Shown here one piece after another: positions 6,150-28,635 of a stretch of DNA of 64,000 bases. The DNA is from an uncultured Alphaproteobacteria bacterium (GTDB taxonomy: Bacteria > Pseudomonadota > Alphaproteobacteria > CAAHEQ01 > UBA3637): contig CANPXT010000001.1 of assembly GCA_947586835.1 (NCBI GenBank), positions 136,395-200,394 on the forward strand, read 5' to 3'. The translations under genes and the position numbers were made by a program. The notes beneath the pieces are model-generated. The model was not told the DNA's origin. It saw only the letters and a list, made by a program, of their open reading frames with translations, and made no database searches. Positions within the stretch are counted from its first letter, which is position 1. Each line of letters opens with the position of its first letter.

Positions 6150-7184
6150 TCATAATTCATGATTATTTTGATTTTGATATCGCATAAACGGAAAAATCTT
6201 TTTTGTATGAATATTTGGCATGTCACCGAAAGTATAATCATGAATGTTTTGCAATGTCATTGAATCTTTAAAAAGATGCAATCGTGATTTTTTGTTTGTG
6301 TTAAAATAATTGCAAACGTTTTTAATTTGATACCCTAATTTTTCATGAGCCGGATATGTGGCCTGATAAACCGGTTTGTTGTTTTGATAAACACTTATTT
6401 TATCAAGCACTTTTCCCACGGATTCCGCCACATCAAGCGATAAAACCATTTTGCATGATTGATTTTGATTATCTTTTAATTCAAATACAAACTCTCTTTT
6501 ACGATGAGGCTTCAAATAAGAAAAGAAAATATTTAAATCTGTTTTTTGCCGGTGAAAAGTCAGCTCATATTTTACTTTTGCCTCAACCGTTTGCTTTGAT
6601 TTTAAATCATTAATTAATTTTTTTTGTTTAACAACCGTTTTTTGTGCTTTTTTAAAATTTAAACAGCAAAATAATAAATCCCACGGATGACAACATTCTT
6701 CCCATGCATTCATTTGCTTTAAAGAAAAATCATGCGGCTTAATATAGGTTACGTTGCATTGTGTTAAAGAAAATCCGGCATGCGCATATTGCTTTAAAAA
6801 ATGTTTTAAATCGCGTAAGGCTTTTGATTGTCGCAAAATATAACCGACGGCAATTTTTTGATTTTGAATAAGCGGCAAAACTGCTTGAAACTCATCTTTT
6901 GATTGTAACGCAGGCTTTTCGATAAAAATATTTTGAATACCCGCTTTCAAAACTTGTTCTAAACACGATTGATGCGCCGAAACCGGTGTCATAATAAAAG
7001 CCGCATCTATTTGCGCTGATGACGGTAATTGTGAAAAGTTTTTTAAGTAAGTAACACGTTTTGTTGAAAGTGTTTGAAATTTGGGATCAACGACATAAAT
7101 ATGCTCAATTGTTTTATCGTTTTTAAAGTAATCGAGTGTTAATTGTCCCATTTTTCCAATGCCGACACATAAAATATGTTTCAT
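6150..7184 (-). CDS. Gfo/Idh/MocA-like NAD(P)-binding oxidoreductase (divergent)
   Basis: N-terminal ILCVGIGKMGQ Rossmann fold, ...FIMTPVSAHQ...FIEKPA pattern typical of the family. The C-terminal half is unrecognisable. The region is visibly more AT-rich than its neighbours. Confidence 0.5.
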   Translation of the reverse strand: MKHILCVGIGKMGQLTLDYFKNDKTIEHIYVVDPKFQTLSTKRVTYLKNFSQLPSSAQIDAAFIMTPVSAHQSCLEQVLKAGIQNIFIEKPALQSKDEFQAVLPLIQNQKIAVGYILRQSKALRDLKHFLKQYAHAGFSLTQCNVTYIKPHDFSLKQMNAWEECCHPWDLLFCCLNFKKAQKTVVKQKKLINDLKSKQTVEAKVKYELTFHRQKTDLNIFFSYLKPHRKREFVFELKDNQNQSCKMVLSLDVAESVGKVLDKISVYQNNKPVYQATYPAHEKLGYQIKNVCNYFNTNKKSRLHLFKDSMTLQNIHDYTFGDMPNIHTKKIFPFMRYQNQNNHEL

Positions 7185-7354
7185 ATCATCCTCACTGATT
7201 TTATTTTACCACAAATACTGACAAAATCAATAAAAATTTTTGAACGAATGCGCATTATGCGGGTACTCAAATTTTCCTAAACAGAAATTATTTATTACAC
7301 ACGGGAATCGGAAAACAGATCAAAATCAGAATAAACGGTTTTTTATGACGGTTA

Positions 7355-7384
7355 TAAAAAAACCACCTCGAAAGGTGGTTTTTA
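7355..7384 (-). terminator. Rho-independent terminator downstream of tRNA-Lys
   Basis: AACCACC-tcgaaa-GGTGGTT hairpin flanked by an A-run and a T-run. On the minus strand it reads as stem plus TTTTT directly after the tRNA 3' end. Confidence 0.6.
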
Positions 7385-7386
7385 AA

Positions 7387-7462
7387 TGGTGAGCGCGCTG
7401 GGATTCGAACCCAGGGCCACCTGATTAAAAGTCAGGTGCTCTACCAGCTGAGCTACGCACTC
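7387..7462 (-). tRNA. tRNA-Lys (anticodon UUU), CCA encoded
   Basis: The reverse complement folds as a cloverleaf: acceptor GAGTGCG/CGCGCTC, D-arm GCTC AGCTGGTA GAGC, anticodon stem CCTGA/TCAGG with loop CTTTTAA, T-arm CTGGG TTCGAAT CCCAG, then ACCA. Confidence 0.95.
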
Positions 7463-7481
7463 ATCAGCTCAACAGAGCTTT

Positions 7482-7510
7482 TTTATACAGAATAATTTAC
7501 CGTTTGTCAA
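7482..7510 (-). promoter_or_regulatory. Sigma70-like promoter for tRNA-Lys
   Basis: On the minus strand: TTGACA, a 17-nt spacer, then TATAAA, about 20 nt upstream of the tRNA 5' end. Confidence 0.45.
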
Positions 7511-7625
7511 TAGTTTTTTTTCATTTTATTCATTTTTTTTATGCCTTTTTATTTTTGCTCCCGTTTAAATATTGACAATTTTTTATTTTTGCGTATGATT
7601 ATTAAAAAAATACAAGGGACTATAA

Positions 7626-8726
7626 ATGAATTTAATTTTATTTAAATATATTTTAAAACATTATGTCTTTATTTTCTTTGCAACCTTGTTTGCATTAACG
7701 GCTGTTGTTTTGTTGTTTGATATTATTGAATTGTTACGCATGGCCGCCAAACGGGAAAACATTGCTTTTTGGGATATTTTGGTTTTAGGTGTGTTAAAAT
7801 CGCCTCAAATGATTCACATTATTCTCCCCTTTGTTGCCTTAATTGCCGGCGTTATTTTCTTTTTAAAATACAGCGCTTCATCGGAATTGATTATTATGCG
7901 TTCCATTGGGATGAGTGTATGGAATTTTATGACGCCGATTGTTGCTTTTGTTTTTCTGCTAGGTGTTTTCAACATTACGATTTTTAATCCTTTTGCTGCC
8001 ATGACATCTAAGCAGTTTGAACGATTGGAAGAAAGAATCGGAATGACGAGTTCACATCCCTTTTCATGGTCGGAAAACGGGCTATGGCTTCGCGAAGCCG
8101 ATGAAAAACAAACACTGGTAATGCGTGCCGGACGGGTTCGGCAAAAAGGAAAAGATGTTATTTTAGATCGGGTTTCTTTGTTTGAATTATTGCCAAACGG
8201 TACCTTAAAACGGCAAATTGAGGGAAATAACGCCATTTTATTAAACGGACAACTCACACTTCCGAATGCTTTTATTATTAATCCGATAACGGAAGAAGCC
8301 TTTACAAAGCCTGTTGAAAGCATTAAAACCGGTTTTAGTTTAGAGCGCATTTTAGAGCGTTTTGATGAACCGAGAACCATGTCGTTTTGGCGATTTCCGA
8401 AGTTTATTCATTTCTTGCGTGAATCAGGATTTACCATTGCCGAACATGCCATGTATTTCAATGAATTGTTGGCTTATCCGATTATGCTGGTTGCCATGCT
8501 GTTTATTGCCGCCGTTTTTACGCTTCCGCCCAATACACGTCAAGGCAAAATGCTGACACGAATTGTGCTGTCCATTCTTGGCGGATTTGTTCTTTATTTT
8601 TTGGGACGTGTGACCAACGTATTAGGATTGTCACAAAGCTTACCCTATGTTTTAGCGGCTTGGGGACCGTCTTTGGTGGTTATACCGCTTTGTATTACTG
8701 CTCTGCTTCATTTGGAAGACGGTTAA
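7626..8726 (+). CDS. lptG: LPS export permease, LptF/LptG family (LptG-like)
   Basis: 366 aa with the family architecture: three N-terminal TMs, a periplasmic beta-jellyroll-sized insert, and three C-terminal TMs. The N-terminus follows the YI.K....F......L....LLFD.IE.LR pattern. Confidence 0.8.
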   Translation: MNLILFKYILKHYVFIFFATLFALTAVVLLFDIIELLRMAAKRENIAFWDILVLGVLKSPQMIHIILPFVALIAGVIFFLKYSASSELIIMRSIGMSVWNFMTPIVAFVFLLGVFNITIFNPFAAMTSKQFERLEERIGMTSSHPFSWSENGLWLREADEKQTLVMRAGRVRQKGKDVILDRVSLFELLPNGTLKRQIEGNNAILLNGQLTLPNAFIINPITEEAFTKPVESIKTGFSLERILERFDEPRTMSFWRFPKFIHFLRESGFTIAEHAMYFNELLAYPIMLVAMLFIAAVFTLPPNTRQGKMLTRIVLSILGGFVLYFLGRVTNVLGLSQSLPYVLAAWGPSLVVIPLCITALLHLEDG

Positions 8727-18427: not shown

Positions 18428-19183
18428 CTATTGTTGATATAATTCGTTTAAAATTGATTCAAACCCGTCATTATGCGTTGCTTTCCGAACGGTTACGATC
18501 GGCGCCGCCTCTTGCACGAAAGCCTTTGTCAGTGCGGGCGGAACAACTGTATCTTTTTCGCCGACGTAATGAATTTGCGGAATTTTTAAAAATTCAATTT
18601 GATAATCTTTTAAATTCAGTGATTCTTTTAAAAGCGTGTCATGATGATAAGCCGTCCATGCATCGGTATCCAACACACCGGCAACGGTAATCACTTTTAC
18701 CACATGCGGATTTTGAACAGCAATCAATCCGGCAATTTGCGCACCGCCCGAATAACCGATTAACACGACCTGATCGGTTTGCGCTTTTTTCATCAGCGCC
18801 GTTACGGCACTATTCATACTGCGTACAATTTGCGGTGAAAACCGACCGGTTGTCCAATCAACTTGCGAACAGGCACCCGCTTGCATATATTGGCAGGGAC
18901 GCCCCAAATAAGCCGTATTGGCATGCGGATCATCAGCTGCAACGTTGCGCCAAAACGCCTCTTGCGGCGTAGGGTTATCCGAAGGAGTTCCGTCGGCATG
19001 AAAAGCGGCACCATCGCCTTCAATATAAATGCGAACGGGTTCACCGGGGGCATTAATGCGATACCAGCTTGCCAAAATGTACGGCGGAGCCGGTTGCGTT
19101 TGAAATCGAAAATCCGTCAACGGATTTTGCGTGGCACAAGCCGTTAAAAAAAGAAACCCTAAAAGAGCAAATAATTTTTTCAT
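18428..19183 (-). CDS. Lipoprotein, alpha/beta-hydrolase fold
   Basis: Lipobox signal MKKLFALLGFLFLTAC and nucleophile elbow GYSGGAQ (GxSxG), with a C-terminal His-containing block (ATHNDGF). Confidence 0.6.
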   Translation of the reverse strand: MKKLFALLGFLFLTACATQNPLTDFRFQTQPAPPYILASWYRINAPGEPVRIYIEGDGAAFHADGTPSDNPTPQEAFWRNVAADDPHANTAYLGRPCQYMQAGACSQVDWTTGRFSPQIVRSMNSAVTALMKKAQTDQVVLIGYSGGAQIAGLIAVQNPHVVKVITVAGVLDTDAWTAYHHDTLLKESLNLKDYQIEFLKIPQIHYVGEKDTVVPPALTKAFVQEAAPIVTVRKATHNDGFESILNELYQQ

Positions 19184-19212
19184 AAACGTTAATATAACAA
19201 ATTCAAATCATC

Positions 19213-19262
19213 TTGACAAGAGTTATTTTAACTCTTACATAGAGTTTGTGAGATACGATAAT
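19213..19262 (+). promoter_or_regulatory. Candidate promoter(s) of the mini-ORF unit, with an embedded 7-bp inverted repeat
   Basis: Option one is TTGACA (19213-18), a 17-nt spacer and TACATA (19236-41). Option two is CTTACA (19234-39), a 17-nt spacer and GATAAT (19257-62). The inverted repeat AAGAGTT-n5-AACTCTT lies at 19218-19236. Confidence 0.4.
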
Positions 19263-19286
19263 ATGTTCGAAAGGAGGGGGAGCATT

Positions 19287-19319
19287 ATGCCGGGTTGCGG
19301 ATGTGGAACAAAGAAATAA
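19287..19319 (+). CDS. 10-codon mini-ORF MPGCGCGTKK (small peptide or leader; could instead be part of an sRNA)
   Basis: A strong SD (AAGGAGGGGGAG) lies 5-9 nt before the ATG. The stop codon sits in the loop of hairpin CAAAGAAA-taag-TTTCTTTG. A strong terminator lies 18 nt downstream. Confidence 0.3.
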   Translation: MPGCGCGTKK

Positions 19320-19331
19320 GTTTCTTTGCGT

Positions 19332-19362
19332 AAAAAAGCACTGCGAAAGCGGTGCTTTTTTC
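19332..19362 (+). terminator. Strong rho-independent terminator after the mini-ORF
   Basis: AGCACTGC-gaaa-GCGGTGCT forms 8 bp with a GAAA tetraloop, followed by TTTTTT and preceded by AAAAAA. Confidence 0.7.
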
Positions 19363-19481
19363 ATTGCCGTTTTTTTTATTGACATTTTTCTTTAAATATG
19401 TAATGTGGTGTTATACATGGAAAAGTATATGAAAAAATTACCACATCTTTTAAAGATGAGAAAAATGCTCATCAGCAAGAT

Positions 19482-19519
19482 ATACATACATACATACATA
19501 CATACATACATACATACAT
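19482..19519. repeat. Tetranucleotide microsatellite (ATAC)9 plus AT
   Basis: Nine perfect ATAC units were counted from 19482 to 19517, plus AT. The tract lies inside the 5' coding region of the first AlgJ-like paralog. The second paralog has only two units at the homologous site. Confidence 0.95.
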
Positions 19520-19526
19520 TCTTTTC

Positions 19527-20633
19527 TTGTTCATTTTTTTTCCTTTATGTGTTTTATTAACCATTGGTCTTACGCTTGATACGACACAAACAAAAAGCGT
19601 TCGTGAACAGCGCAATTTAGAAATATTTTCACCTTATTTTTGGACGCAAAGTGAACAACTTGAAAAATATATCTCCGATCATTTACCGTCCCGCTCAAAA
19701 TTAATTGATTTTTATTTCGAATCGGGTTTAGGGTACGATTTAGGTACTAAAGACCGCATTATCGGTAAAGAAAATTTTGTTTTCTATACTGCCTCATATC
19801 ATAGAAACATAAAACCGTTATCCATTTATCAAAATTCTTATTTACTTACGTCCGAACAAACTAATCTCCTTCAAAAAAACGTTCAAAAAATTGCTGGTTT
19901 TGCCAAAGAACATAACATTAAAGTCTATTTTATGATTCCGCCGGAAACCTCACGCGTTTATCACAAATGGATGCCTGATTATATTTTAAGAGAAAACAAT
20001 CCTTCCGTTTTGAAACAGGTTGAAACGGCACTTCAAGACATTGTGACCGTCGTTCCGATTGAAAAACACCTTATTTCTCAAGCACGCAGTCAATTTCCTC
20101 TCATTTATAAAACCGACACGCACTGGTCGGAAGACGGGGCATTTGAAGCCTACAAACTTTTAATGAAAGCCATACAAAAAGACTTCAAAGACATTCGCGC
20201 CGTTACACCCGATGATTATCATATTGAACGGACACAAAAAGTGTGGTCACCTTATCAATATGTGCAAAAACCGTATTTCTATGACGGAAACACTTATTTA
20301 AACGGACTTGATTACGGCAAAACGCAATATCAACATTATATTTATAAAGATAAAGCCGCCTTAAAAATTAACCGTGATGTACAGTTTCGTTTTTCGGATT
20401 ATGAAAAAGGTGCTCCGTATCGGGCTTATATCATCGGTGACAGCTTTTCTTACTATATGCTTCCGTTTTTAATGCCCACATTTTCCCATATCAGAATGCA
20501 CCGATTTAATGAAAACGGTGACACGGGCATTCGTTGGCAAGAGCGTGAAAAAGAATTGGCAGATGACAAAATTGATATTTTAATTTTAAGCATTTCCTCT
20601 CAAAAACTGGAAGAGTTAATGAGGTATTTTTAA
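19527..20633 (+). CDS. AlgJ/AlgX-like SGNH-type O-acetyltransferase, paralog 1 (body of gene; paralog-like ATG starts at 19417/19429 are out of frame across the ATAC tract)
   Basis: KTDTHWSEDGA (D-x-H) and IIGDSFSYY (catalytic Ser block), plus the N-terminal TM FIFFPLCVLLTIGLTL. It is about 85-90 percent identical to paralog 2. There is no SD before the TTG at 19527. Confidence 0.7.
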   Translation: MFIFFPLCVLLTIGLTLDTTQTKSVREQRNLEIFSPYFWTQSEQLEKYISDHLPSRSKLIDFYFESGLGYDLGTKDRIIGKENFVFYTASYHRNIKPLSIYQNSYLLTSEQTNLLQKNVQKIAGFAKEHNIKVYFMIPPETSRVYHKWMPDYILRENNPSVLKQVETALQDIVTVVPIEKHLISQARSQFPLIYKTDTHWSEDGAFEAYKLLMKAIQKDFKDIRAVTPDDYHIERTQKVWSPYQYVQKPYFYDGNTYLNGLDYGKTQYQHYIYKDKAALKINRDVQFRFSDYEKGAPYRAYIIGDSFSYYMLPFLMPTFSHIRMHRFNENGDTGIRWQEREKELADDKIDILILSISSQKLEELMRYF

Positions 20634-20648
20634 CGGGTTATTTTTTTA

Positions 20649-20676
20649 TTGACATTTTTTATTGAACAGATATAGT
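20649..20676 (+). promoter_or_regulatory. Promoter of AlgJ-like paralog 2 (duplicated with the gene)
   Basis: TTGACA, a 16-nt spacer and TATAGT. The same TTTTTTATTGACATTTTT block precedes paralog 1 at 19371-19389. Confidence 0.4.
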
Positions 20677-20699
20677 GAATGGTATGCATAGGAAACCAA

Positions 20700-21881
20700 A
20701 TGAAAAATTTATCCTCTTTATTAAAGCCGACAAAAATGCCCGTCAACAAAGGTATACATACGTTCCTTCTTTGCTTATTTATTCTTTTTCCTTTATGTGT
20801 TTTATTAACCATTGGTCTTACGCTTGATACGACACAAACAAAAAGCCTGCGCGAACGGCGCAATTTAGAAACTTTTCCCTTTCATTTTTGGGCACAGAGC
20901 AAAAAGCTTGAAAAATATATCTCCGATCATTTGCCGAAACGACCCGAACTGATTGATTTTTATTTTGAATCAGGTTTGGGACACGATTTAGGTACCCAAG
21001 ATCGCATTATCGGCAAAGAAAATTTTATTTTCTATACAACCTTATATTATAGAAACATAAGTCCGTTATTAATTTACCAAAATTCTTATTTATTCACGCC
21101 AAAACAAATCAGATTGCTTAAAAAAAATGTTCAAAAAATTGCCGATTTTGCCAAAGAGCATAATATTAAAGTTTATTTAATGATTTCACCCACAACCTCA
21201 CGCATTTATCACAAATGGATGCCTGATTATATTTTAAGAGAAAACAATCCTTCCGTTACAGAACAAGTTGAAACGGCAGTGCAAGATATAATAACCGTCG
21301 TTCCGATTGAAAAACATCTTATTTCCCAAGCACGCAGTCAATTTCCGTTAATTTACAAAACCGACACGCACTGGTCGGAAGACGGGGCGTTTGAAGCCTA
21401 TAAGCTGTTAATGAACGCCATACAAAAAGATTTTAAAGACATTCGCGCCGTCACACCCGATGATTATAATATCAAGCTGATAAAAAAAGTATGGGAATCT
21501 TATCAATATGCGCAAAAACCGTATTTTGATAACGGAAACACTTATTTAAAAGGGCTTGATTACGGCAAAACACAATACCGACATTATATTCATAAAGATA
21601 AAGCCAATTTAAAAATTAACCGTGATATACAGTTTCGGTTTTCGGATTATGAAAAAGGCGCTCCGTATCGGGCTTATATCATCGGGGATAGTTTTACTTA
21701 TTATATGCTTCCGTTTTTAATGCCCACATTTTCCCATATCAGAATGCACCGATTTAATGAAAACGGTGACACGGGCATTCGTTGGCAAGAGCGTGAAAAA
21801 GAATTGGCAGATGACAAAATTAATATTTTAATTTTAAGCATTTCCGATCAAAAACTGGAAGAATTAATGGGGTATTTTTAA
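20700..21881 (+). CDS. AlgJ/AlgX-like SGNH-type O-acetyltransferase, paralog 2 (intact)
   Basis: MKNLSSLLKPTKMPVNKGIHTFLLCLFILFPLCVLLTIGLTL TM anchor, with the same DTHW and GDSF motifs. The start at 20700 is chosen by analogy with MKKLPHLLK of paralog 1. Confidence 0.75.
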   Translation: MKNLSSLLKPTKMPVNKGIHTFLLCLFILFPLCVLLTIGLTLDTTQTKSLRERRNLETFPFHFWAQSKKLEKYISDHLPKRPELIDFYFESGLGHDLGTQDRIIGKENFIFYTTLYYRNISPLLIYQNSYLFTPKQIRLLKKNVQKIADFAKEHNIKVYLMISPTTSRIYHKWMPDYILRENNPSVTEQVETAVQDIITVVPIEKHLISQARSQFPLIYKTDTHWSEDGAFEAYKLLMNAIQKDFKDIRAVTPDDYNIKLIKKVWESYQYAQKPYFDNGNTYLKGLDYGKTQYRHYIHKDKANLKINRDIQFRFSDYEKGAPYRAYIIGDSFTYYMLPFLMPTFSHIRMHRFNENGDTGIRWQEREKELADDKINILILSISDQKLEELMGYF

Positions 21882-23291
21882 ATGATTTTTTCTTCATTCA
21901 CATTTCTTTGTTATTTTTTGCCGATTGTTGTGGGTATTTATTATATATTACCCAATCGCCTTCGCAATGTATTTCTGCTTTTGGCGTCGCTTATTTTTTA
22001 CGGTTGGGGACAACCTGCGCATTTGCTGGTGTTACTGTGTTTAATTGTCATCGGCTTTTATGCCGCCAAAGACATAACGCGTTACCCTCAAAAAGCCAAA
22101 ATGATATGTACGGCAAGCTGTTTTTACATTTTAGGTAATTTTTTCTTTTTTAAATACGGTGATTTTGTTCTGACTTCCTTCAACGATTTAACGAAAAAAA
22201 ATTTACCGTTGTTTTATATTACCCTGCCGCTCGGCATTTCGTTTTATGTATTTCAACTGCTCTCTTATGTGATTGATGTTTATCGTAAAAAAGCCAATGC
22301 GCAAAAAAGTTTTTCCGCGCTGGCGCTGTATGTCAGCAGTTTTCCGCAACTGATTGCGGGTCCGATTGTGCGTTACGATACCGTTGCCAAACAGTTAACA
22401 CATCGGCGGCACTCCATAGCAAAAGTTTATCAGGGGTTTCGACGCTTTTTAATCGGTCTTGCCAAAAAAGTGATTATTGCCGATATGTTGGGACATAGCG
22501 TTGATATGATTTTTGAAAGTTCCGTTTCTTCTTTAACACCTGCCATTGCGTGGCTCGGTGCATTTTTATATGCTTTACAAATTTATTTCGATTTTTCGGG
22601 CTATTCGGATATGGCCATCGGATTGGGGCGCATGTTCGGTTTTCGCTTTTTGGAAAACTTTAATTATCCCTATCTTTCCAAATCGATTTCCGAATTTTGG
22701 CGTCGGTGGCATATTTCGTTGTCAAGTTGGTTTAAATCATATGTATATATTCCCTTGGGCGGCAACCGACACGGCTTGTTACGAACCGTTTTCAATTTGG
22801 CAGTCGTGTTTTGCTTAACCGGATTTTGGCACGGTGCCGCGTGGACCATGGTTGTGTGGGGATTATGGCAAGGCTTTTTCGTGATTTTTGAAAAACTGTT
22901 AAAAGCAGCGGCGCATTCCCTGCATATCACACACATATCCGCCGTTTTTTATGCCGTTATCGGTCGGTGTTACGCTTTAATCGCATTACTGCTCGGCTGG
23001 GTTGTTTTTCGGGCAGAAACACTCTCGCAAGCTTATGATTACATTCGGTTAATGTTCGGACTTCTTCCCTATAAACAAGCGTTCGGCATTTCTTATTACA
23101 TACAAGGGTTATTGTGGCTCATTATTGTCTTTGCCGTCATTGCTTCAACGGGCGTGTTTAAATCTGTTTTACGGTATCGGGGATTTTGGACGCATTTTTT
23201 CATCAATCTCTGGCTGATTTTCCTGTTGTTCATTGTAATTGTTCTGTTAACGGGCAGCGGATACAGTGCCTTTATTTATTTTCGGTTTTAA
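21882..23291 (+). CDS. MBOAT family O-acyltransferase (AlgI/PatA/DltB-like)
   Basis: A polytopic 469-aa protein with the MBOAT signature FWRRWHISLSSWF...YIPLGGNR. Its ATG directly abuts the stop of paralog 2. Confidence 0.88.
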   Translation: MIFSSFTFLCYFLPIVVGIYYILPNRLRNVFLLLASLIFYGWGQPAHLLVLLCLIVIGFYAAKDITRYPQKAKMICTASCFYILGNFFFFKYGDFVLTSFNDLTKKNLPLFYITLPLGISFYVFQLLSYVIDVYRKKANAQKSFSALALYVSSFPQLIAGPIVRYDTVAKQLTHRRHSIAKVYQGFRRFLIGLAKKVIIADMLGHSVDMIFESSVSSLTPAIAWLGAFLYALQIYFDFSGYSDMAIGLGRMFGFRFLENFNYPYLSKSISEFWRRWHISLSSWFKSYVYIPLGGNRHGLLRTVFNLAVVFCLTGFWHGAAWTMVVWGLWQGFFVIFEKLLKAAAHSLHITHISAVFYAVIGRCYALIALLLGWVVFRAETLSQAYDYIRLMFGLLPYKQAFGISYYIQGLLWLIIVFAVIASTGVFKSVLRYRGFWTHFFINLWLIFLLFIVIVLLTGSGYSAFIYFRF

Positions 23292-26751: not shown

Positions 26752-28635
26752 ATGGAAACACCTGAAGTCTTACCCACCGAAAATAAGAAAAATGAGCCGA
26801 AAAAAACAACGGCTCGTCCGCCGAAAATGTCCGTCGAGCCAAAAGAGGATGAGAAAACATCCGCTCAAAAAGATATGAAGAACGGTAAATCGAAAGCCAA
26901 TTCGGATGATGCGTGCAAGGACAAACCCCGCAACGCGGATAAAGAAAATTCCGACGATAATAACGACGAAGACAATAAAGAAAATCCCGATGATGATGGG
27001 GACAACGATGAAGACGAAAATCCCGACGATGACGATGATGATGACGACGGAGATAATGACGAAGATCCCGACGATGACGATGATGATGACGACGGAGATG
27101 ATGACGAAGATCCCGACGATGACGATGATGATGACGACGGAGATGATGACGAAGATCCTGACGATGACGATGATGGTGAAACGGGTAGCGGAACAAGCGG
27201 CGAAGAAGATGAAAACGAGCTGATTTGGCTTACAAAAGAAGAAACAAGTACTAAAAATCCATTTTCAAAACCCCAAAACATTCCCTCACCGACACCTAAA
27301 AAAGAAAAAATTCAAGGGCCTGAAAAAGTTGAACGAACTCCTTGGCAACAAATGATTGATTTTATTGTGCATGGTGCCAAAGGTGCCATGATTAAAAACG
27401 GTGATATTTCCATTAAAGAACAAATTACCGATAAGCTGTTGCTCGGGCTGGGCTTTAAGTCATTTAAAGAAGATATTATGTTGCAACAACAGGCTAAAAA
27501 ATATTGGATTCAAAGATTAACGGGACAAAAAACCGATGTTTCATTATTGAATACGGATAAAATCGTCAAAAAAATAAAAAATGAAGAAACGTTTCAACAA
27601 AAAAAACAACGTTCCCAAGAACAAGTTACTGAGCATAAAAACTTTTTGACGCGCCTGATCGGGCAGAAGCAAAAAGAATCTGTTTCAATTCAACCCAATC
27701 AACAAACGGAAAACTTAAAATCACGCGTGATAAATCAAAAAACAGAAAAACAACCCGTACCGACTCAACCGCTTATTCAACAATCACATCTTACGGTCAA
27801 TGAAACTAAAACAACTTCAACATCTATACCATCAACGTCCATACCATCAACATCCGTACCGACATCAAAACCCCAAACAACGGAAACGCACGGATTAAAA
27901 GAAAAAATCGGACTGGCAGTTCAATTGACGGAAGAAAAATTACCTTTACGACCGGATCATACCATCAATCAAAACGAATTGCATGCTGAAAGACCTTTAA
28001 CCGTTACCGAATTAAAACAAAAAGAAAAAAAAGAAGCCGAAATCAATCCGACAACCGAACAAAGTGTTCAAAAACAACAAAAACATGATCAAAAAGATTT
28101 TCAAAATTTAATCATCATGCAGCAAATGCAAATACAAAATAATATACAAAACAATATGCAACACACCGTGCAAAGTAAGCTGCAAAATGAACTACAATTG
28201 CAAAATTTACAACAACAAATGGAATTTGTTGCCGCTGCCAGAGCAGCAGGACAACAACATCTTCATCAATCGCGACCGCAGCACAGACCGATACAGCCTT
28301 TCCCTGAGGAATTACTCCAACCTGTCGCTCCCACCAATAACCTTACACCTGCCGAAAAACAATTGATTCGCAAAGACTCGGAAACATTTGCCAATGTAGT
28401 TCATACATTAAATAACTTGAAATCAAACCCTTCGGAATCAAAAGCTCCGAATCCGAAATCTACAGACTCGACATCTGCGGATTCAACATCTGCGGATCCG
28501 AACGATCAATTGAAAAACACGGGCATGGGCACGAGCACAGAAGTACTTACTAATAATGCAATACCCGTTGATGAAGGAGCTATGAATCAAGAGAATCAGC
28601 ACCTACTGAATGAGAGTTTAAGCAAAAACAGATAA
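26752..28635 (+). CDS. Orphan low-complexity protein: poly-Asp/acidic tandem repeats, Ser/Thr-Pro repeats, Q/N-rich C-terminal half
   Basis: A 627-aa ORF with a promoter and AAAGGA SD. It has no signal peptide or TM. Composition is D/E/K/Q/N/T-rich. It is the only long ORF across 1.9 kb; the other-frame ORFs here are repeat artefacts. Confidence 0.6.
   Translation: METPEVLPTENKKNEPKKTTARPPKMSVEPKEDEKTSAQKDMKNGKSKANSDDACKDKPRNADKENSDDNNDEDNKENPDDDGDNDEDENPDDDDDDDDGDNDEDPDDDDDDDDGDDDEDPDDDDDDDDGDDDEDPDDDDDGETGSGTSGEEDENELIWLTKEETSTKNPFSKPQNIPSPTPKKEKIQGPEKVERTPWQQMIDFIVHGAKGAMIKNGDISIKEQITDKLLLGLGFKSFKEDIMLQQQAKKYWIQRLTGQKTDVSLLNTDKIVKKIKNEETFQQKKQRSQEQVTEHKNFLTRLIGQKQKESVSIQPNQQTENLKSRVINQKTEKQPVPTQPLIQQSHLTVNETKTTSTSIPSTSIPSTSVPTSKPQTTETHGLKEKIGLAVQLTEEKLPLRPDHTINQNELHAERPLTVTELKQKEKKEAEINPTTEQSVQKQQKHDQKDFQNLIIMQQMQIQNNIQNNMQHTVQSKLQNELQLQNLQQQMEFVAAARAAGQQHLHQSRPQHRPIQPFPEELLQPVAPTNNLTPAEKQLIRKDSETFANVVHTLNNLKSNPSESKAPNPKSTDSTSADSTSADPNDQLKNTGMGTSTEVLTNNAIPVDEGAMNQENQHLLNESLSKNR
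27025..27180. repeat. 45-bp tandem repeat, about 3.4 copies (encodes DDDDDDDDGD(N/D)DEDP)
   Basis: Units at 27025-27069, 27070-27114 and 27115-27159 differ by 1-2 nt. A partial fourth unit follows. Confidence 0.9.

Follow-up and report, generated by a model that had tools for sequence, protein, structure and literature searches.

Here we describe a run of nine ATAC units that probably acts as a hypermutable simple sequence repeat (SSR), switching an O-acetyltransferase gene on and off by slipped-strand mispairing. The run lies in a 64,000-nt stretch of contig CANPXT010000001.1 (assembly GCA_947586835.1, positions 136,395 to 200,394) from an uncultured Alphaproteobacteria bacterium; this whole stretch is called the window below, and positions refer to it unless another locus is named. 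The affected gene, copy 1, is followed by an intact, 86%-identical paralog (copy 2) and by a gene for an MBOAT membrane acyltransferase. We assign a probability of about 0.78 to the reading that (ATAC)n is the slipped-strand on/off switch of this ALGX/PatB1/AlgJ-family O-acetyltransferase, which would work with the downstream MBOAT protein. The first-pass annotation of the window had proposed such a switch from the letters alone, and two results support it: the tract is polymorphic in length, and the body of copy 1 is under purifying selection. With SSR contingency loci it shares a pure non-triplet repeat in the 5′ coding region that shifts the frame with its unit number, length polymorphism between assemblies with identical flanks, and the occurrence of both ON and OFF alleles of a selected open reading frame (ORF).

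Nine ATAC units separate the start codons from the enzyme frame

A regular-expression count finds nine perfect ATAC units at 19482–19517 on the forward strand, and TRF, run on the window, reports the same array as ATAC × 9.5 (19482–19519, 100% matches), the sole period-4 array in its output. The periodic stretch as a whole spans 19480–19519 (40 nt). Apart from this tract, the repeat census of the 64-kb window contains no tetranucleotide run of more than three units, and 200 first-order Markov simulations of the window gave maxima of 2–4 units. Set against a simulated maximum of four, a tract of nine is far beyond chance. The ATAC unit contains no stop codon in any forward frame (IHTY, YIHT or TYIH).

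Two start codons precede the tract, ATG 19417 and ATG 19429, which share a frame and between which GGAAAAG provides a weak Shine-Dalgarno (SD) sequence for the second. The frame they open, which reads MEKYMKKLPHLLKMRKMLISKIYIHTYIHTYIHTFFSCSFFFLYVFY in full, encodes IYIHTYIHTYIHT across the tract and is closed by TAA 19558–19560. The body of the enzyme lies in another frame, open from position 19404 onwards, which crosses the tract (...DIHTYIHTYIHTYILFLFIFFPLCVLL...) and ends at 20633. Its earliest ATG, GTG or TTG is TTG 19527, from which 368 amino acids are encoded; this codon sits inside the hydrophobic segment, behind a pyrimidine-rich stretch and with no SD sequence. Start frame and body frame thus differ by one frame across (ATAC)9. 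When the tract is edited in silico, 7, 10 and 13 units yield fusions of 398, 402 and 406 amino acids, and 8, 9, 11 or 12 units yield only peptides of 43–52 amino acids. On all these points the first-pass annotation is borne out: it had reported the nine units, the ATG frame that closes at 19558–19560, a body startable only at TTG 19527, and the joining of the two frames by one added unit (10) or two lost units (7).

The promoter-like site in front of copy 1 has homologous counterparts (TTGACA-16-TATAGT) before copy 2 and in the relatives; its −10 hexamer (TAATGT) has only 3 of 6 matches and falls under the scan threshold. A search of the whole window against Rfam returned one tRNA only, and the same search of 19150–19600 at E ≤ 1 returned only sub-threshold chance matches, so the leader is not explained by a known RNA element.

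Tract length varies between otherwise identical loci

Relatives were drawn from ENA, NCBI and Logan, and their tract counts, like that of the window, are the consensus of short-read metagenome assemblies. A scan of species-representative genomes gave three syntenic loci (L001–L003) at 80–83% protein identity, all in rabbit-gut (‘Lapin’) metagenome-assembled genomes titled uncultured Alphaproteobacteria, with 10, 2 and 12 ATAC units, respectively, at exactly the homologous codon. The protein database held clusters with identical bodies and differing N-termini, and the DNA of these was compared (Table 1).

Table 1. Tract length and frame state in the window and related assemblies, by lineage. 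ATG-1 and ATG-2 are two start codons in different frames, described below; OFF, no start codon in frame with the enzyme body.
Lineage	Locus	ATAC units	State
A (window species)	window	9	OFF
A	L004 (ERZ27249446)	3	OFF
B	L001	10	in frame with ATG-1
B	L006	6	OFF
B	L008	5	in frame with ATG-2
B	L009	2	in frame with ATG-2
B	L007	long, degenerate	open from ATG-2; set aside as a probable artefact
C	L003	12	OFF
C	L010	5	in frame with ATG-2
D	L002	2, without the ATTC junction unit	in frame with ATG-1
D	L011	4	in frame with ATG-1
D	L012	1	in frame with ATG-1
D	L013	3	OFF
D	L014	at least 7, contig starts in tract	not assigned

L004 matches the window with 0 mismatches over 4,107 nt, the sole difference being a 24-nt gap at the tract. 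Pairwise comparison of L001, L006, L008 and L009 gives 0 mismatches over ~4.1 kb throughout, with tract length as the only difference. Lineage B thus combines at least three tract changes with 0 changes at ~4,100 flanking sites, from which we infer, as a rough lower bound, a rate of tract change some four orders of magnitude above the per-site rate. The tract is accordingly not fixed at nine units, with 3 in L004 and 1, 2, 3, 4, 5, 6, 10 and 12 in the related lineages. All three reading frames are represented among 13 alleles, five of them OFF, four in the ATG-1 frame and three or four in the ATG-2 frame (the fourth being the degenerate L007). Nor is the start at 19527 conserved in place of an upstream one: of the 11 related alleles, 7 (8 if L007 is counted) have an upstream ATG from which the body can be read in frame. 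A scan of JGI metagenomes for the 3′ tract junction, ATACATACATTCYTTYYTTGYTYRTT, gave 0 matches.

The T8 run that the first-pass annotation had offered as a second slip site is ordinary. It lies at 19534–19541 and not, as written there, at 19533–40, is one of 36 A/T runs of at least eight in the window, and is identical in L004.

Two sequences were rejected as natural alleles. L005 (P0026; ERZ27249451 NODE_4435, 1–1430) looked like a naturally ‘repaired’ copy 1, and was identified as an assembly artefact that loops through a 63-nt stretch shared by the two copies. This contig opens in the 3′ end of copy 1, passes into a copy 1 body fused to the leader of copy 2, and continues into a further full copy; an assembly loop is the probable cause, rather than a strain with three copies. 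In L007 (ERZ27249395 NODE_528, 1550–1650), ~100 nt of degenerate ATAC-like sequence are enclosed by flanks identical to those of its sister loci; this is probably an unresolved long tract or the product of low-quality reads, and would, if real, be a much longer allele. The shared stretch itself, ~63 identical nucleotides at 19537–19599 and 20785–20847 (anchor plus TLDTTQTKS) in genes that are ~86% identical overall, may reflect gene conversion, and it is long enough to mislead assemblers working at k = 55.

Relatives carry start codons in two frames

Upstream of the tract, lineages B–D have two ATGs that lie 16 nt apart in different frames, ATGCAT (ATG-1) upstream of ATGAAAA (ATG-2). ATG-2 is preceded by AGGAG or AGGAAA. 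ATG-1 has no SD sequence and lies 7 nt past the TATAGT −10 hexamer; judging by this spacing, it may stand at the 5′ end of the transcript, that is, be leaderless. In either frame the encoded tail is rich in K/R (MKNLSPFLKPKKMLANKD... and MHRKPNEKFIPLFKAEKNARQQR..., net +4 and +5), and the third frame has stops; overall, the N-terminal tails read from the two start frames have net charges of +4 to +6. Having two ATGs in different frames gives lineages B–D two ON frames and one OFF frame. The pair is present in L001–L003 and L006–L013 and absent from window copy 1, where ATACAT replaces ATG-1 and ATG 19417 has been gained in the ATG-2 frame. Because ATG-1 is lost, window copy 1 can be ON in one frame of three only. 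The second-frame start of the relatives had been overlooked in the first-pass annotation.

Copy 1 encodes a predicted ALGX/PatB1-like enzyme

Both copies match the Pfam family ALGX (PF16822), with 48.7 bits (E = 1e-12) for copy 1 and 47.9 bits for copy 2 against a gathering cut-off of 26.5; a search of NCBIfam found no model for either. The closest solved relative by sequence is PatB1 of B. cereus (5v8d, E = 2.6e-8), with the DxHW and DSF motifs aligned, and the sequence match to AlgJ is weak (E = 0.021). The earlier label of an AlgJ-like O-acetyltransferase therefore holds for the ALGX family and shifts, within it, from AlgJ itself to PatB1. AlgJ in the strict, alginate-related sense was rejected on this weak match and on the surroundings, as no alginate cluster lies around the genes, nor were genes for the synthesis of another polysaccharide found near the cassette.

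The catalytic motifs of copy 1, DTHW (20115–20126) and GDSF (20436–20447), are both intact. They recur in copy 2 and the orthologs and align with the DHHW and DSF of PatB1, and 20 homologs all share their His, Trp, Asp and Ser. An AlphaFold2 model of copy 2 (mean pLDDT 85.7) consists of a disordered start (residues 1–15), a helix (17–40) and an alpha/beta domain. A Foldseek search of the PDB with this model placed PatB1 (5v8e, E = 2.7e-14), a DHHW protein (4nzk), AlgJ (4o8v) and AlgX (4knc) on top, although copy 2 is only 11–15% identical to the matched solved structures. The fold evidence for copy 1 is this model of its 86%-identical paralog. On these matches, the copy 1 product is best classed as a member of the ALGX/PatB1/AlgJ structural family, predicted to be paired with the MBOAT protein.

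The tract stands directly before the predicted membrane helix (Table 2). In the ON form of copy 1, an N-terminal tail of net charge +6 precedes 19 residues with a mean Kyte-Doolittle value of 2.67. A start at TTG 19527 leaves 16 hydrophobic residues, a truncated anchor with no positive tail.

Table 2. Coordinates of the switch region and the acetyltransferase cassette in the window.
Feature	Position	Strand	Remarks
Promoter-like site, copy 1	19379..19406	+	TTGACA (19379–19384), 16-nt spacer, TAATGT (19401–19406)
Start codons ATG 19417 and ATG 19429	19417..19431	+	common frame
(ATAC)9 tract, predicted slippage site	19482..19517	+	homologous site has 1–12 units in 12 other assemblies
Membrane-anchor codons ILFLFIFFPLCVLLTIGLT	19518..19574	+	body frame, immediately 3′ of tract
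Copy 1 body, predicted ALGX/PatB1-like O-acetyltransferase	19527..20633	+	368 codons from TTG 19527
T8 run	19534..19541	+	ordinary
TAA closing the ATG frame at 9 units (OFF state)	19558..19560	+	
Promoter-like site TTGACA-16-TATAGT, copy 2	20649..20676	+	11/12 match
Copy 2, intact paralog	20700..21881	+	in frame, own promoter-like site
MBOAT (AlgI/PatA/DltB-like) membrane acyltransferase	21882..23291	+	PF03062, E = 1e-31

The tract is older than the duplication

Copy 2 is intact and has, as first described, only two units at this site, an interrupted remnant (ATACATAC, 20754–20761). The accompanying claim that the tract had expanded specifically in copy 1 had to be given up: the tract occurs at the homologous codon in single-copy orthologs of three other lineages and is therefore older than the duplication. 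By this comparison, copy 2 is the copy that lost the tract, which has collapsed to GGTATACATACGTT.

A second duplication is found in L003, where the tract-bearing copy is followed by another paralog (7100–8399 of that locus), whose own tract is degenerate (TGTACATATATAAGT) and which is locked in the ATG-1 frame. In a neighbour-joining tree, window copy 1 pairs with window copy 2 and the two L003 copies (L003a and L003b) pair with each other; moreover, the L003 junction includes 24 nt from the very start of the MBOAT gene (MIFSSFTF), which are missing from the window junction. Given the pairing and the differing junctions, the two duplications look independent, although gene conversion could mimic the pattern. 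In the window and in L003 alike, a long tract survives in the upstream copy, and the downstream copy is locked in the ON state, window copy 2 to ATG-2 and L003b to ATG-1. That the paralogs are locked to different ATGs supports both as usable starts.

We advance only tentatively, and at somewhat less than even odds, the further interpretation that the locus is an evolved multi-state translational switch (two ON states, one OFF) in at least four species-level lineages. It would comprise a 57-nt leader that encodes a charged tail in both frames and a variable/locked-ON division of copies that arose twice independently, and it would be the first contingency locus for the MBOAT/ALGX pathway and for this bacterial group.

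Alternative explanations

Several points weigh against a functioning switch. Both alleles of the window species (9 and 3 units) are OFF, and with its weak −10 hexamer and its lost second-frame ATG, copy 1 could be drifting to loss in this species. Nine units are short by comparison with Haemophilus tracts, so switching may be slow, and since an intact, 86%-identical paralog is present, its phenotypic effect may be small. All tract counts come from assembly consensus and not from reads, and L005 and L007 are assembly artefacts at this very locus. If SPAdes defaults are assumed, five units correspond to the minimal de Bruijn loop at k = 21, and the 5-unit alleles could thus be collapse artefacts.

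The least improbable alternative is that copy 1 is a redundant duplicate, frameshifted by its SSR and becoming a pseudogene, with the tract as a mutational hotspot and no maintained switch. It would account for the two OFF alleles of the window species, for the degradation of the −10 hexamer to TAATGT where copy 2 and the relatives have TATAGT, and for the loss of the alternative-frame ATG, and it is in keeping with the intact paralog next door. Parsimony counts also give a slightly higher nonsynonymous/synonymous ratio on the copy 1 branch (21/12) than on the copy 2 branch (19/17), yet this is no significant acceleration (Fisher p = 0.47). The 363 codons compared in the copy 1 body contain 0 stops and 0 frameshifts, the catalytic motifs are preserved, and the tract is still perfectly pure. 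Pairwise dN/dS is 0.14–0.26 across all pairs, copy 1 included (0.18–0.22 for its body); the distance to L001 is nearly the same for copy 1 (dN 0.102) as for copy 2 (dN 0.099), and both copies are equally distant from the outgroups. The absence of stops, a dN/dS of ~0.2 and the lack of acceleration argue against long-standing inactivation. In addition, single-copy species, whose gene has no redundant partner, also keep a frame-variable tract. We therefore regard a decaying duplicate as unlikely.

We consider it quite improbable that the nine units are an assembly or sequencing miscount of a plain intact gene (with 10 units, for example) and that this genome has no OFF state. Repeats are error-prone in short-read metagenome assembly, and the artefacts in L005 and L007 are genuine. 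However, the 40-nt periodic stretch is shorter than 55, the usual largest SPAdes k-mer, and nine units do not coincide with the minimal loops of 5, 8 and 13 units expected at k = 21, 33 and 55. The same holds, under assumed SPAdes defaults, for 6, 10 and 12 units, and alleles of 1–4 units are shorter than any k-mer used and must be supported by reads. An independent assembly has 3 units, which leaves the gene in the same OFF frame, and even if nine were wrong, the polymorphism elsewhere would point to a switch.

It is very improbable, finally, that the tract lies in an untranslated leader and that the enzyme always starts downstream (at TTG 19527, or in relatives at the ATG of MLDTTQ), making tract length irrelevant to expression: the three frames are similarly frequent among the alleles and gene callers did choose downstream starts for P0001, P0006, P0029 and P0030, but the downstream start is not conserved (a TTG within the anchor in lineages A and B, an ATG past it in C and D), TTG 19527 has neither an SD sequence nor a complete, positively preceded anchor behind it, in every one of the more distant homologs the start precedes the anchor and opens a K/R-rich tail, and the paralogs with collapsed tracts are in frame with an upstream ATG (ATG-2 in window copy 2, ATG-1 in L003b).

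Proposed mechanism of switching

Under the slipped-strand model, mispairing at replication would add or remove 4-nt units, presumably reversibly, and each change would join ATG 19417/19429 to, or separate them from, the frame of the anchor and the catalytic domain. Ribosomes would read the tract as IHTY repeats in a short cytoplasmic N-terminal tail that should tolerate differences in length, and the enzyme is predicted to be membrane-anchored, SGNH-like and facing the periplasm, with the tract among the codons of its cytoplasmic tail. At 9 units, window copy 1 would be OFF and produce a 43–47-amino-acid peptide ending at TAA 19558; at 7, 10 or 13 units, it would produce the full enzyme of 398–406 amino acids, whose tail has more or fewer IHTY residues.

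Copy 2, with its own promoter-like site and collapsed tract, is expected to be constitutive, and neither it nor the MBOAT gene would be affected by switching. In the window species, the switch would thus toggle a second, 86%-identical acetyltransferase, presumably altering in what pattern or to what extent a cell-envelope glycan is O-acetylated; peptidoglycan, lipopolysaccharide and other surface polysaccharides are candidates for this glycan. In single-copy relatives, the sole such enzyme would be switched, and acetylation by this pathway would be turned on or off altogether.

Neighbourhood and other features of the window

The start of the MBOAT gene abuts the stop of copy 2, and the cassette sits among housekeeping genes (yebC, recR, ybaB, an ELM1-like gene, an alpha/beta-hydrolase lipoprotein gene, uppP, pgk and gap). 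A distant homolog, L015 (37% identical), is a lone ALGX and MBOAT pair that is likewise located among housekeeping genes; its gene context, searched for a clue to the substrate, offered only this picture of a stand-alone cassette. In the interval 20001–22000, the paralogs have a G+C content of 0.353, as against 0.40–0.44 in the flanking housekeeping genes, and this composition fits a lateral acquisition of the ALGX and MBOAT cassette. The lipoprotein gene (18428–19183, reverse strand; lipobox LTAC) is divergent from the cassette, and its synteny extends to all related loci. One may speculate that its product is the matching O-acetyl esterase, as Ape is in clusters for peptidoglycan O-acetylation.

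Between this gene and copy 1, a tiny ORF (MPGCGCGTKK*, 19286–19318) lies behind a very strong SD sequence (aaaggagggggag). Upstream of it are a perfect palindrome, AAGAGTTAtttTAACTCTT, and a promoter-like CTTACA-17-GATAAT, and a terminator hairpin (19338–19361) lies downstream. The region (19220–19361) is conserved nearly base for base in L001–L003 and matches no Rfam family. Elsewhere in the window, a tandem repeat with a 45-nt period (26988–27212; 4.3 copies, 92% matches) is made up of GAT, GAC and GAA codons and forms an Asp/Glu-rich coding stretch.

Discussion

The closest mechanistic parallel is licA (lic1) of Haemophilus influenzae, in which the CAAT repeat is combined with initiation codons in two frames, alpha/beta and gamma (PMC2212159). 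In both genes, a tetranucleotide repeat lies just within the 5′ coding end and its unit number aligns or misaligns the starts, and in lineages B–D the resemblance extends to two ON frames and one OFF frame; window copy 1 has starts in one frame only. Both products modify a surface glycan, a role that is predicted for the enzyme described here. The differences concern the unit (ATAC), the enzyme (an ALGX/PatB1-like acetyltransferase instead of a choline kinase), the host (rabbit-gut Alphaproteobacteria) and tract length, with 1–12 units here and about 15–40 in licA. Tetranucleotide tracts in Haemophilus slip at ~1e-4 per generation (PMC2651432).

With oafA of H. influenzae, icaC of Staphylococcus aureus and wciZ, the locus would share slippage inside an acyltransferase gene and an effect on the O-acyl modification of a surface glycan. 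The enzymes of these three genes are integral-membrane AT3-type acyltransferases; the gene switched here, unlike them, is predicted to encode the periplasmic, SGNH-like partner of an MBOAT protein in a two-component pathway. Phase variation proceeds via GCAA repeats in oafA (PMC10505976), via TTTA repeats in icaC (PMC4117637) and by slipped-strand mispairing in wciZ of Streptococcus pneumoniae (PMC4432689). The arrangement of an MBOAT gene beside that of an ALGX-domain protein is the one known from AlgI/AlgJ/AlgX and from PatA1/PatB1 of the Bacillus cereus secondary cell-wall polysaccharide. PatB1, AlgJ and AlgX are further matched in fold (by the copy 2 model); the DxHW...GDS motifs are shared as well, and the predicted N-terminal membrane tether resembles the one described for AlgJ (PMC4432689). 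Unlike those systems, the present cassette lies among housekeeping genes such as recR, ybaB, uppP, pgk and gap.

In full-text searches of a library of open-access papers, we found neither an SSR-driven phase-variable gene in Alphaproteobacteria nor a phase-variable gene of the ALGX/AlgJ/PatB1 family. SSR contingency loci are best known in host-adapted pathogens (Haemophilus, Neisseria, Campylobacter, Helicobacter and Mycoplasma), and phase variation of gut commensals is mostly ascribed to DNA inversion. The locus is a well-supported addition to the SSR contingency loci: its proposed mechanism is classic, and, as far as these searches reach, such a locus had been described neither for this host group nor for this family of enzymes.

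For genome analysis, the locus has practical consequences. Gene callers truncate or misannotate what is one gene, reporting 355, 356, 368 or 371 amino acids in place of 393–429, and assemblers break or scramble contigs at this site. Tract length, in turn, could be used as a within-strain marker in metagenomes. If the switch is real, uncultured commensal Alphaproteobacteria of the rabbit gut use the tetranucleotide strategy on the periplasmic half of an MBOAT/SGNH-like pathway, and this would imply that envelope acetylation is under fluctuating selection in their niche, be it from phage, antibody or lysozyme.

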